From a virus (lineage: Duplodnaviria; Heunggongvirae; Uroviricota; Caudoviricetes): DNA of 36,377 bases. Shown here one piece after another: positions 19,121 through 20,087 of this stretch (position 1 is its first letter; each line of letters opens with the position of its first letter). The notes beneath the pieces were generated by a model. It was given only the letters and a program-made list of their open reading frames with translations, made no database searches and was not told the origin of the DNA. The stretch lies in IMG/VR virus record IMGVR_UViG_2917398303_000003; one strand, given 5' to 3'. A program made the position numbers and the translations under genes.

Positions 19121-19164
19121 GCCAACTAATTTGGTTAATCTAATTTATTCGTTGTTAACGAATA

Positions 19165-19980
19165 TCATATTTTTAATTTTTTATGGATATGCTCCATCCC
19201 TAAATTAGATATCTCTTTTTTTAGCTGGGTTTCACTTGCAGTTATCCAGTTTTTTCCACAGTTTGGTAGAAGCATCTCGCTACTTGACGGATTGATAAGT
19301 TTTACTTTTTCATTCTTTATAATTTTGTTTTTCAAATAACTTTTACTTATTGAGGCTGATTTTTCAGTTATAACGAGATAAAAAAATATGCTTCCAAAAA
19401 ATATACCTTTTAAAATAATACCACTGCGTAACAGAACAGGGTCATTTTTGGTTATTCTCATTTTAAAGGGAGAGCAAAGGTTGTCTTCACTTGTAGGTAT
19501 ATTAAGTTCGCTTTTTTGCTCGTCAGTAAGTTTAAGAGGCATGAGCAGTCCAGCGAAGAGCATGACATCTTTTTCTGAAGGCAAAGGTTCTCCGCGGAGA
19601 ATATAATCTTTATATGCGCCAAAAATATGTGTGGATGGATCATTGACCGCGCTTGCCGAGTTGTAAGAAATTTTCATTAACCAGCGTAGCAATAAATGAT
19701 AATCATAAGTTATAGTCGTTTGTGTCTTTAGATAAAGTTGGGTTAAGAAACCGTTTCTGGCTAAAAACTGACTTCCACAATCATCTAAAAAACTTAATAC
19801 TCCACCATTGCATGTTTTACAAACATCGGCAATTGTTGCCTCACCACCAATTATATCATTTGCTCTCTCGTTCCAGCCTATAAAACGATCTCCAGATTCT
19901 TTTTGATATTTATATATAAATTTAGGGATAATATGTTCTCTTTCTATTATTCCATCTTGATCGCAATATCTGCAGTGCAT
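19165..19980 (-). CDS. HNH-like nuclease-domain protein with unknown C-terminal region (271 aa); cargo gene between S and V
   Basis: ORF track. N-terminal C-x2-C ... EREHIIP ... C-x2-C-N pattern (CRYC...EREHIIPKF...CKTCNGG) typical of the HNH zinc-finger fold. A hydrophobic stretch IILKGIFFGSIFFYLVI lies in the C-terminal half. Opposite strand to the late operons. Region is AT-rich by eye. Confidence 0.7.
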   Translation of the reverse strand: MHCRYCDQDGIIEREHIIPKFIYKYQKESGDRFIGWNERANDIIGGEATIADVCKTCNGGVLSFLDDCGSQFLARNGFLTQLYLKTQTTITYDYHLLLRWLMKISYNSASAVNDPSTHIFGAYKDYILRGEPLPSEKDVMLFAGLLMPLKLTDEQKSELNIPTSEDNLCSPFKMRITKNDPVLLRSGIILKGIFFGSIFFYLVITEKSASISKSYLKNKIIKNEKVKLINPSSSEMLLPNCGKNWITASETQLKKEISNLGMEHIHKKLKI

Positions 19981-20024
19981 TATTTTCTCCGTTGATTTTA
20001 TTTATCGTTAATTTTCAGTTGTAA

Positions 20025-20042
20025 TGTGCCATCCATCATACA
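20025..20042. promoter_or_regulatory. TGT-N12-ACA dyad (Ogr-box type) upstream of V
   Basis: tgtgccatccatcataca. Its left half TGTGCCAT is shared with the FI dyad. The centre is only ~54 nt from the V ATG, so spacing to a transcription start is uncertain. Confidence 0.4.
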
Positions 20043-20087
20043 ACGGTATGTTATCGACTGAAATTCCATTTAGTTTAACATTTTTGC

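Follow-up and report, generated by a model that had tools for sequence, protein, structure and literature searches.

A putative HNH-type nuclease gene as exchangeable cargo of the S-V slot in a P2-like prophage

Between the tail gene S and the baseplate gene V of a P2-like (Peduoviridae) prophage lies a gene of deviant composition, encoded on the strand opposite to that of its neighbors, which raises the question of what its product does and why it is carried in the middle of the late tail operons. The window, by which we mean the whole stretch of 36,377 nucleotides analyzed here (IMG/VR record IMGVR_UViG_2917398303_000003), contains this gene at positions 19165 to 19980 of the minus strand, where it starts with ATG and encodes 271 amino acids, with an N-terminal module that resembles HNH_5 and a C-terminal one that is novel. 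We propose that this cargo gene encodes a putative single-protein nuclease, most likely an immunity factor that is directed against phages or other mobile elements and that the prophage would express without depending on the late operons, a reading to which we assign a probability of roughly 0.55.

The left conserved flank of the gene is gpS (18674 to 19120, plus strand), a protein of tail completion and virion morphogenesis matching Phage_tail_S, and the right one is the baseplate assembly protein gpV (20088 to 20666, plus strand). In the profile of guanine-plus-cytosine (GC) content, the values over positions 19000 to 20200 are 0.29 to 0.38, whereas on either side they are about 0.57; calculated per gene, GC is 0.337 for the cargo gene, 0.544 for S, and 0.563 for V. 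Sequence comparison confirmed that the open reading frame (ORF) is a real gene and not a chance ORF, since full-length homologues were retrieved (858 clusters; see below). In RefSeq, the near-identical Escherichia coli protein WP_001748178.1 is labeled "hypothetical protein." A preliminary description, made from the letters of the window alone, had already pointed to a minus-strand ORF of 271 residues between S and V, with a composition unlike that of its neighbors, and had taken it for an AT-rich accessory gene (moron) inserted at this junction; all these claims stood up in the present analysis.

The S-V slot and its exchangeable cargo

In close relatives of the prophage, S and V are separated by a spacer of 68 bp, which holds PV, the promoter of V. 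When the window is compared with the empty-site phage 500465-1, the identity falls from about 0.8 to 0.9 to about 0.5 at roughly position 19064 and is again 1.0 from the ATG of V; the foreign DNA begins about 60 nucleotides inside the 3' end of S (roughly at 19060) and not at the S stop codon, a point on which the preliminary description needs to be corrected. The swapped cassette (19060 to 20087) thus consists of the cargo gene with a variant flank on either side, namely, an alternative AT-rich 3' tail of S (approximately its last 20 codons) and an alternative PV promoter region, and it stands in place of about 60 nucleotides of S and of the whole spacer of the empty-site relatives. No target-site duplication was found at the cassette borders.

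Among 50 sampled E. coli records having both flanks, the S-V site was empty in 27 cases and otherwise held hypothetical proteins (9 records), DUF6216 proteins (7 records), DUF2971 proteins (2 records), and, in one record each, a TIR, a SIR2, an FRG, and a PcfJ protein and the cargo gene of the window. This comparison of the junction, which the preliminary description had recommended, therefore revealed a site that is either empty or occupied by unrelated single genes, further occupants being P2 Orf30 and a 176-amino-acid Cartapus gene. The cargo gene itself occurs in 10 of 5426 complete E. coli genomes, about 1050 of which have this S-V region (approximately 1%). Furthermore, several of the alternative cargo proteins match PADLOC models, namely, PDC-S25/ThsA for SIR2, PDC-S31 for DUF2971, PDC-S15 for FRG, and PDC-S66/SpbK for TIR.

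The S-V variable region is the Orf30 locus of P2 (Nilsson and Haggard-Ljungquist, as cited in PMC3091744), and in PMC3091744 orf30 figures among three regions of P2-like phages that are listed as horizontally acquired. Defense hotspots within P2 late genes are mentioned in a 2026 study, and other P2 hotspots are the subject of Rousset 2022 and Vassallo 2022. The gene of the window lies between conserved S and V genes, is missing from close relatives, is replaced by unrelated genes in sister phages, and deviates in GC content, and it is exchangeable cargo of this classical P2 "orf30" locus. P2 Orf30 and the cargo gene resemble each other in lying antisense between S and V, in their length (261 versus 271 amino acids), and in being AT rich and nonessential, with the PV activator site immediately upstream, whereas Orf30 is hydrophobic, has no HNH motif, and is unrelated. 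Homology to P2 Orf30 and the DUF6216 family was considered and rejected (hhalign probability of 0.9%), and the tblastn search of phage records described below, which includes P2, found nothing.

In the window, the late-activator (Ogr-type) site of PV, with the pattern TGT-N12-ACA, maps to positions 20025 to 20042 of the plus strand, 63 nucleotides before the V ATG, in agreement with the dyad given in the preliminary description; the P2 annotation places the activator site at the corresponding PV position. To see how far such an arrangement is shared, eleven S-V cassettes can be set side by side (the window at 19060 to 19120 and 19981 to 20087, and loci L002, L025, L031, L033, L038, L040, and L044 to L047). 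All eleven have their own AT-rich version of the last 15 to 20 or so codons of S and their own PV region, whatever the cargo, and in 10 of the 11 the TGT-N12-ACA pattern lies 63 to 65 nucleotides before the V ATG, the exact pattern having no match in the P2 reference. It follows from these private S tails that the C terminus of gpS varies with the cargo. Moreover, since unrelated cargo (TIR, SIR2, DUF2971, FRG, and the Cartapus gene) shows the same altered flanks, these are a property of the slot rather than the footprint of this nuclease.

Alleles of the cargo gene were found in the same slot and orientation in other P2-like phages. The closest (L023) is 88% identical and belongs to a phage that is about 80% identical at the nucleotide level; a second (L038) is 51% identical, although the R, S, V, W, J, and I proteins of its phage are 72 to 91% identical to those of the window; a third (L025) is 45% identical, and three more (L039 to L041) are 43 to 44% identical. 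The three alleles whose composition was measured (the window, L023, and L025) have a GC content of about 34% within phages of 54 to 59% GC, and because alleles that are 45 to 88% identical all keep this value, the low GC is maintained and is not the fading trace of a recent import.

The presence of several alleles at one site makes it attractive to think of a free-standing HNH homing endonuclease, the chief alternative to a defense role. As a selfish nuclease gene, it would maintain and spread itself at the S-V junction, in that it would cut empty-site P2-like genomes during coinfection and be copied into them by recombinational repair. HNH enzymes are a classical homing-endonuclease class. 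In favor of such an enzyme, at least four divergent alleles (88%, 51%, 45%, and 43 to 44% identical) are found in different P2-like phages at precisely this junction and with identical orientation, 8 of 10 IMG/VR matches lie at the S-V junction, and the S tail and PV region adjacent to the insertion are altered, as co-conversion or target immunity would produce. However, the same junctions, with a private S tail and PV variant, are found for unrelated cargo, the gene is antisense to the late operon, and its occurrence in about 1% of the E. coli genomes with an S-V region is a poor fit to a successful homing element. The preliminary description had set out two accounts that would compete with its own, a homing endonuclease with a target-site duplication and a structural accessory present in all relatives: for the first, neither homology to annotated homing endonucleases nor a duplication was found, and the second disagrees with the lack of the gene in most close relatives. 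Together with the distribution of the family considered below, these data make a homing enzyme decidedly unlikely. As regards the borders themselves, a transposon-like or homing-like insertion was rejected on the ground that they are common to unrelated cargo and show no duplication.

Some observations concern individual occupants of the slot. The TIR cargo (L044, 937 to 1737) is on the plus strand, like the late genes, whereas all other S-V cargo examined (the HNH alleles and five unrelated genes) is antisense. One of the ten E. coli copies of the cargo gene (L048, E. coli G5) is frameshifted, giving ORFs of 204 and 56 amino acids, and the other nine are intact. In L049 (E. coli 2024CK-00475), an IS1A element is found between gpS and an intact cargo gene and appears to truncate the S tail.

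A conserved HNH-like module and a fast-diverging partner

The conserved module (codons 1 to 120; 19621 to 19980, minus strand) carries a zinc knuckle of four cysteines (C3, C6, C54, and C57) together with E15-H16, D52, N58, and D66. In particular, the motif residues C3-x2-C6, E13-R-E15-H16-I-I-P19, and C54-x2-C57-N58 coincide, residue for residue, with those that the preliminary description had read from the translation, and the zinc-knuckle part is followed by a conserved helix, D93-Y94-x2-L97-x-R99-W100-x2-K103-x3-N107. In an alignment of 56 sequences of the family, E15, H16, D52, C54, C57, N58, L62, D66, and K103 are invariant, and C3, C6, P19, R99, W100, and N107 are nearly so; C3 and C6 are at least 90% conserved in this alignment and invariant in an N-terminal alignment of 30 sequences. 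The residues expected of an HNH or His-Me finger enzyme are thus all present, that is, a conserved His of the catalytic type after an acidic residue, an Asn or His of the metal-ligand type where the helix begins, and four cysteines for a CCCC zinc site.

The preliminary description had called the protein HNH-like, which holds at the level of the family more than for the protein itself. Against Pfam HNH_5 (PF14279), the cargo protein scores 17.6 bits (E value of 0.0038), below the cutoff of 27.5 bits, but HNH_5 is matched by 43 of the 56 relatives at E values of ≤0.01, with a best E value of 2.6e-7. One relative (P0009) has a precomputed PF14279 assignment, and a plasmid homologue was named "HNH endonuclease" by the Prokaryotic Genome Annotation Pipeline. 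Compared with HNH_5 and the His-Me finger superfamily (PMC5714182), the protein shares the zinc-stabilized motif CxxC...(D/E)H...CxxCN and the predicted strand-strand-helix order, in which H16 closes a strand and N58 opens a helix; different from the HNH_5 model, it has about 30 extra residues (a helix and a small hairpin) between the core strands and about 190 further residues without a counterpart.

An AlphaFold2 model of the cargo protein was obtained with a mean predicted local distance difference test score (pLDDT) of 82.4 and a predicted template modeling score (pTM) of 0.85. Its topology fits the strand-strand-helix arrangement of such a nuclease, with a strand at 12 to 16 ending at H16, a strand at 49 to 54, and a helix at 57 to 75 starting at C57-N58, and the four cysteines are placed as in zinc-stabilized His-Me fingers. 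However, Foldseek retrieved nothing from the PDB at an E value of ≤1e-3, a search in which a small beta-beta-alpha core within a larger query is easily missed, and neither the whole-family profile nor an N-terminal-only profile retrieved HNH structures among PDB sequences. Since no HNH structure was brought up by fold searching, even though the model used is a confident one, the nuclease fold is deduced from motif and topology; the HNH assignment is well supported by the conservation of the motif and by the profile matches of the family, and fold comparison adds no independent confirmation to it.

These results also bear on the idea that the protein might be a zinc-finger protein that is catalytically dead or losing its function and that rides as a passenger in a recombination hotspot. 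The subthreshold HNH_5 score, the lack of an HNH fold match, and the frameshifted copy would agree with it. On the other hand, conservation extends over the full length in hundreds of clusters from many phyla, with E15, H16, D52, C54, C57, N58, D66, and K103 invariant, the structural model is confident, and 9 of the 10 E. coli copies are intact, so that passive carriage of a dead protein seems most improbable.

The second part of the protein (codons 121 to 271; 19168 to 19620, minus strand) is a fast-diverging basic module with no recognizable family or solved fold. The preliminary description had found the residues beyond the motif unrecognizable, and they proved to be so in our searches as well, since residues 121 to 271 or thereabouts have no match in Pfam, NCBIfam, PADLOC models, or the PDB. 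The segment from residue 111 to residue 271 has an isoelectric point of 9.3, and the sole structural neighbor is one uncharacterized Myoviridae protein in BFVD, which is probably a member of the family. In terms of information content, residues 1 to 120 mostly reach 2.1 to 2.9 bits per column (1.7 for residues 21 to 40), whereas residues 121 to 271 reach 0.8 to 1.5; the P2-borne alleles are 57 to 64% identical over residues 1 to 110 and 31 to 43% identical over residues 111 to 271.

The hydrophobic stretch IILKGIFFGSIFFYLVI (residues 188 to 205) lies in the C-terminal module, and it had been described in the preliminary description as possibly membrane associated. This suggestion did not survive modeling, because the stretch is modeled with high confidence (pLDDT of 87 to 90 for the blocks concerned) as a buried beta-hairpin with strands at 188 to 195 and 198 to 205, connected by a turn, G196-S197, that is invariant. 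Judged from the AlphaFold2 model, the idea of a membrane protein was rejected, as two beta strands and not a transmembrane helix occupy these positions.

The protein family and its genomic neighborhoods

While a word-indexed search returned only 11 relatives, the exhaustive profile search that was then used gave 858 representative clusters at an E value of ≤1e-3, 594 at ≤1e-10, and 151 at ≤1e-30. Most matches are full length (260 to 275 amino acids), and their hosts include Gamma-, Beta-, Alpha-, and Deltaproteobacteria, Planctomycetota, Bacillota, and Bacteroidota, some members being plasmid borne. Judging from these matches, the family is real, and it is unnamed.

Two features of individual members were also observed. 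A subgroup of about 425 to 440 amino acids (P0088, P0092, P0102, P0109, P0125, P0141, P0147, P0152, and P0160 to P0165) has an extra C-terminal extension of about 160 residues, for which no Pfam match was found, and two genes of this long subgroup (L028 and L030) stand alone among metabolic genes. The Brenneria protein P0004 (L003, 347 to 1189) was deposited with 269 amino acids, beginning with MTREHIIP and thus without the first CxxC; because an in-frame upstream start (MKCRYC...) restores a full-length protein of 280 amino acids, the annotated start is probably wrong.

The gene neighborhoods of the relatives are varied, and the sample of contexts is small. In a Tn7-like element, one member is cargo along with GmrSD_N, Eco57I-type methylase, HicAB, and HEPN genes; another directly follows the type I restriction-modification (R-M) operon hsdR-x-hsdM-hsdS, and another directly follows a Shedu SduA_C gene. 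Furthermore, one member adjoins a gene of the DCD family (PF22769) and an integrase gene. Two others are plasmid borne: a Citrobacter plasmid has one as the cargo of a Tni transposon, and an IncF plasmid has one within a few kilobases of a gene for a site-specific integrase. Several more are found among plain metabolic genes. In every locus measured, the gene of the cargo family is below the GC of the locus, as expected for mobile cargo. No recurrent partner gene was found, no Pfam family occurring in more than 2 of the 106 neighboring proteins from 16 loci; since, in addition, the gene stands alone between structural genes, it looks like a single-gene system.

The distribution of the family returns us to the homing endonuclease considered above, which would be expected to be confined to phage, intron, or intein contexts. 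A tblastn search of 50,697 phage records, P2 included, revealed no homologue; PHROGs gave only weak matches of unknown function, and members of the family are found in chromosomes, plasmids, and transposons of many phyla, beside R-M or Shedu genes, all of which argues against homing.

Candidate role, mode of action, and expression

A role in defense or exclusion is a candidate one, for which the slot-mates and the neighbor genes provide indirect support: the slot-mates match PDC-S15, PDC-S25, PDC-S31, and PDC-S66, and relatives lie beside defense genes or on transposons, a location of the kind generally associated with defense genes. The SIR2 (PDC-S25), DUF2971 (PDC-S31), FRG (PDC-S15), and TIR (PDC-S66) genes resemble the cargo gene in occupying the same slot in sister prophages as single, mostly antisense genes with their own S tail and PV variant, and the old, tin, and fun genes of P2 can be grouped with them as single-gene cargo of P2-like hotspots. 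Different from the cargo protein, these slot-mates have other effector chemistry, and the cargo family is not in PADLOC-DB v2.

As to how such a factor could work, the N-terminal zinc-stabilized His-Me (HNH_5-type) module would be the effector that cuts DNA, with H16 as the putative general base and N58, D66, and E15 and/or D52 as the putative metal holders. A conserved effector half joined to a fast-diverging second half suggests that the basic C-terminal module sets the trigger or the target, deciding when or what the enzyme would cut. It could be hypothesized that this module holds the nuclease inactive until a phage-derived trigger is met, as in fused sensor-effector proteins, or, alternatively, that it confers DNA specificity, like the corresponding domain of a restriction enzyme. 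We favor a sensor-gated nuclease over a restriction-like enzyme, because the C-terminal half evolves fastest, and the data fit both. In outline, SNIPE, a prophage-encoded membrane-bound nuclease (PMC13190303), and fused sensor-effector proteins offer a parallel, each being one protein in which the nuclease module is conserved and a second module, believed to set the target, is more variable; unlike the cargo protein, SNIPE has a GIY-YIG nuclease, a transmembrane anchor, and DUF4041, and there is no homology between the two.

The restriction-like alternative, a subvariant of the defense reading, would follow the logic of McrA (Type IV), in that a modification or a sequence of the DNA would be read by the C-terminal module and incoming DNA would be cut by the HNH module, with no abortive step. 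A single gene without an immunity partner would suit such an enzyme, as would the basic C-terminal half, the relative found directly after a type I R-M operon, and the one found beside GmrSD_N and methylase genes. McrA itself provides a precedent of similar size and logic, as a prophage-borne HNH protein of 277 amino acids. EcoKMcrA (Type IV, prophage e14) is like the cargo gene a prophage-borne single gene of about 275 codons that joins HNH to a second domain, which is target selecting in McrA and putatively so in the cargo protein; however, HNH is C-terminal in McrA and N-terminal in the cargo protein, whose second domain is unrelated to any solved fold. Among the known modified-DNA reader domains that would mark a Type IV enzyme, none was recognizable in fusion with the nuclease. 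On this balance, direct restriction of the McrA kind seems unlikely to us. Similarity to McrA was also tried by hhalign, which aligns CxxC...HH-V-I-P of McrA with CxxC...EH-I-I-P, but the alignment is not significant (probability of about 1%) and the candidate was rejected.

The signals around the gene bear on its proposed independent expression. A GGAG ribosome-binding site, read from the sequence, is located at positions 19987 to 19990 of the minus strand, 7 to 10 nucleotides 5' of the ATG. In a lenient scan, a weak sigma-70-like candidate promoter (TTCAGT-16-TATGAT, 8 of 12 matches) was seen at 20035 to 20062 of the minus strand, where it overlaps the PV activator site, and a stricter scan called none there; that it drives the cargo gene is speculative. 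Between the convergent stops of S and of the cargo gene, an AT-rich 8-bp hairpin, UAUUCGUU-GUU-AACGAAUA, occupies positions 19146 to 19164, with a T-rich run on the plus strand (z = -1.7 and -2.9). Although a consensus terminator scan did not call it, we infer that it is a candidate terminator of the S operon, and it may stand in for the rho-independent terminator that the P2 annotation has downstream of S.

Several results weigh against an immunity factor expressed on its own. Neither consensus nor lenient scans gave a convincing promoter for the cargo gene. The protein has no match in PADLOC-DB v2 (2023), and across 56 relatives PADLOC gave only one weak PtuB match and one weak PDC-M14A match. 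No mention of WP_001748178 was found in the literature, and the protein is not in the DefensePredictor supplements either. Moreover, the cargo of hotspots is not always defensive, as the same prophage has an acyltransferase and a GNAT protein in its other slots.

A further explanation is that the protein serves the phage itself, by degrading host or competitor DNA during lytic growth, by countering host defense, or by interfering with P4-type satellites. Its gene is inside the morphogenetic region, the sequence upstream of the gene overlaps the activator site of the late promoter PV, and alleles of it persist in the P2-like lineage; in some cos phages (HK97-like), HNH proteins assist DNA packaging. 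However, the great majority of close relatives are without the gene and presumably viable, which makes a role in the phage life cycle unlikely, and the gene is antisense to the late operons and not near the terminase genes. If we also consider that the family is widespread in nonphage contexts and that a frameshift splits one of the ten E. coli copies, the chances of such a function appear slim.

The other variable regions of the prophage can be described briefly. The A-Q (old/tin) hotspot (7861 to 10638) contains a GNAT acetyltransferase gene (8226 to 8645, minus strand), followed 2 nucleotides on by an ORF of 120 amino acids (7861 to 8223, minus strand), and a gene for a 523-amino-acid protein (9067 to 10638, plus strand) with only a weak P-loop ATPase_2/mad8 match; in the prophage of strain EA7, which is otherwise about 96% identical, a TIR-domain protein is found in this hotspot instead. 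In the Z/fun slot, a 377-amino-acid Acyl_transf_3 protein is encoded between the tail-fiber assembly genes and the sheath gene (24920 to 26053, minus strand), and it may be a surface-polysaccharide acyltransferase involved in lysogenic conversion and not a defense gene.

Taking up again the reading of the cargo protein as an immunity factor, we advance a more specific proposal, tentatively and at somewhat less than even odds: the protein would be the first noticed E. coli member of a widespread, uncatalogued family of single-protein immune factors (about 858 clusters in Proteobacteria, Bacillota, Planctomycetota, and Bacteroidota), in which a C-terminal domain of unsolved fold, acting as sensor or specificity domain, would control a zinc-stabilized HNH nuclease, and the S-V slot would be a bona fide defense hotspot that cotransfers a private gpS tail and PV promoter. 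The S-V slot is already known, as is single-gene nuclease cargo in prophage hotspots as a kind; what is new is an unnamed family with a second domain lacking recognizable relatives.

Should the protein not protect, its gene would be one more ordinary hypothetical gene of a variable region that is already known. The design of the cassette, with a private S tail, the cargo, and a private PV with its activator at a fixed distance, also shows how cargo can be exchanged inside an essential late operon while the operon stays intact. If the cargo protein does protect, the bacterial immune repertoire would gain a single-gene system that is so far uncatalogued and has a domain of unknown fold, and this system would offer a cheap, compact nuclease for study. 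In that case, the S-V ("orf30") slot would be a defense hotspot like the well-studied A-Q and Z/fun slots, and the search space for new systems would widen across thousands of sequenced P2-like prophages.

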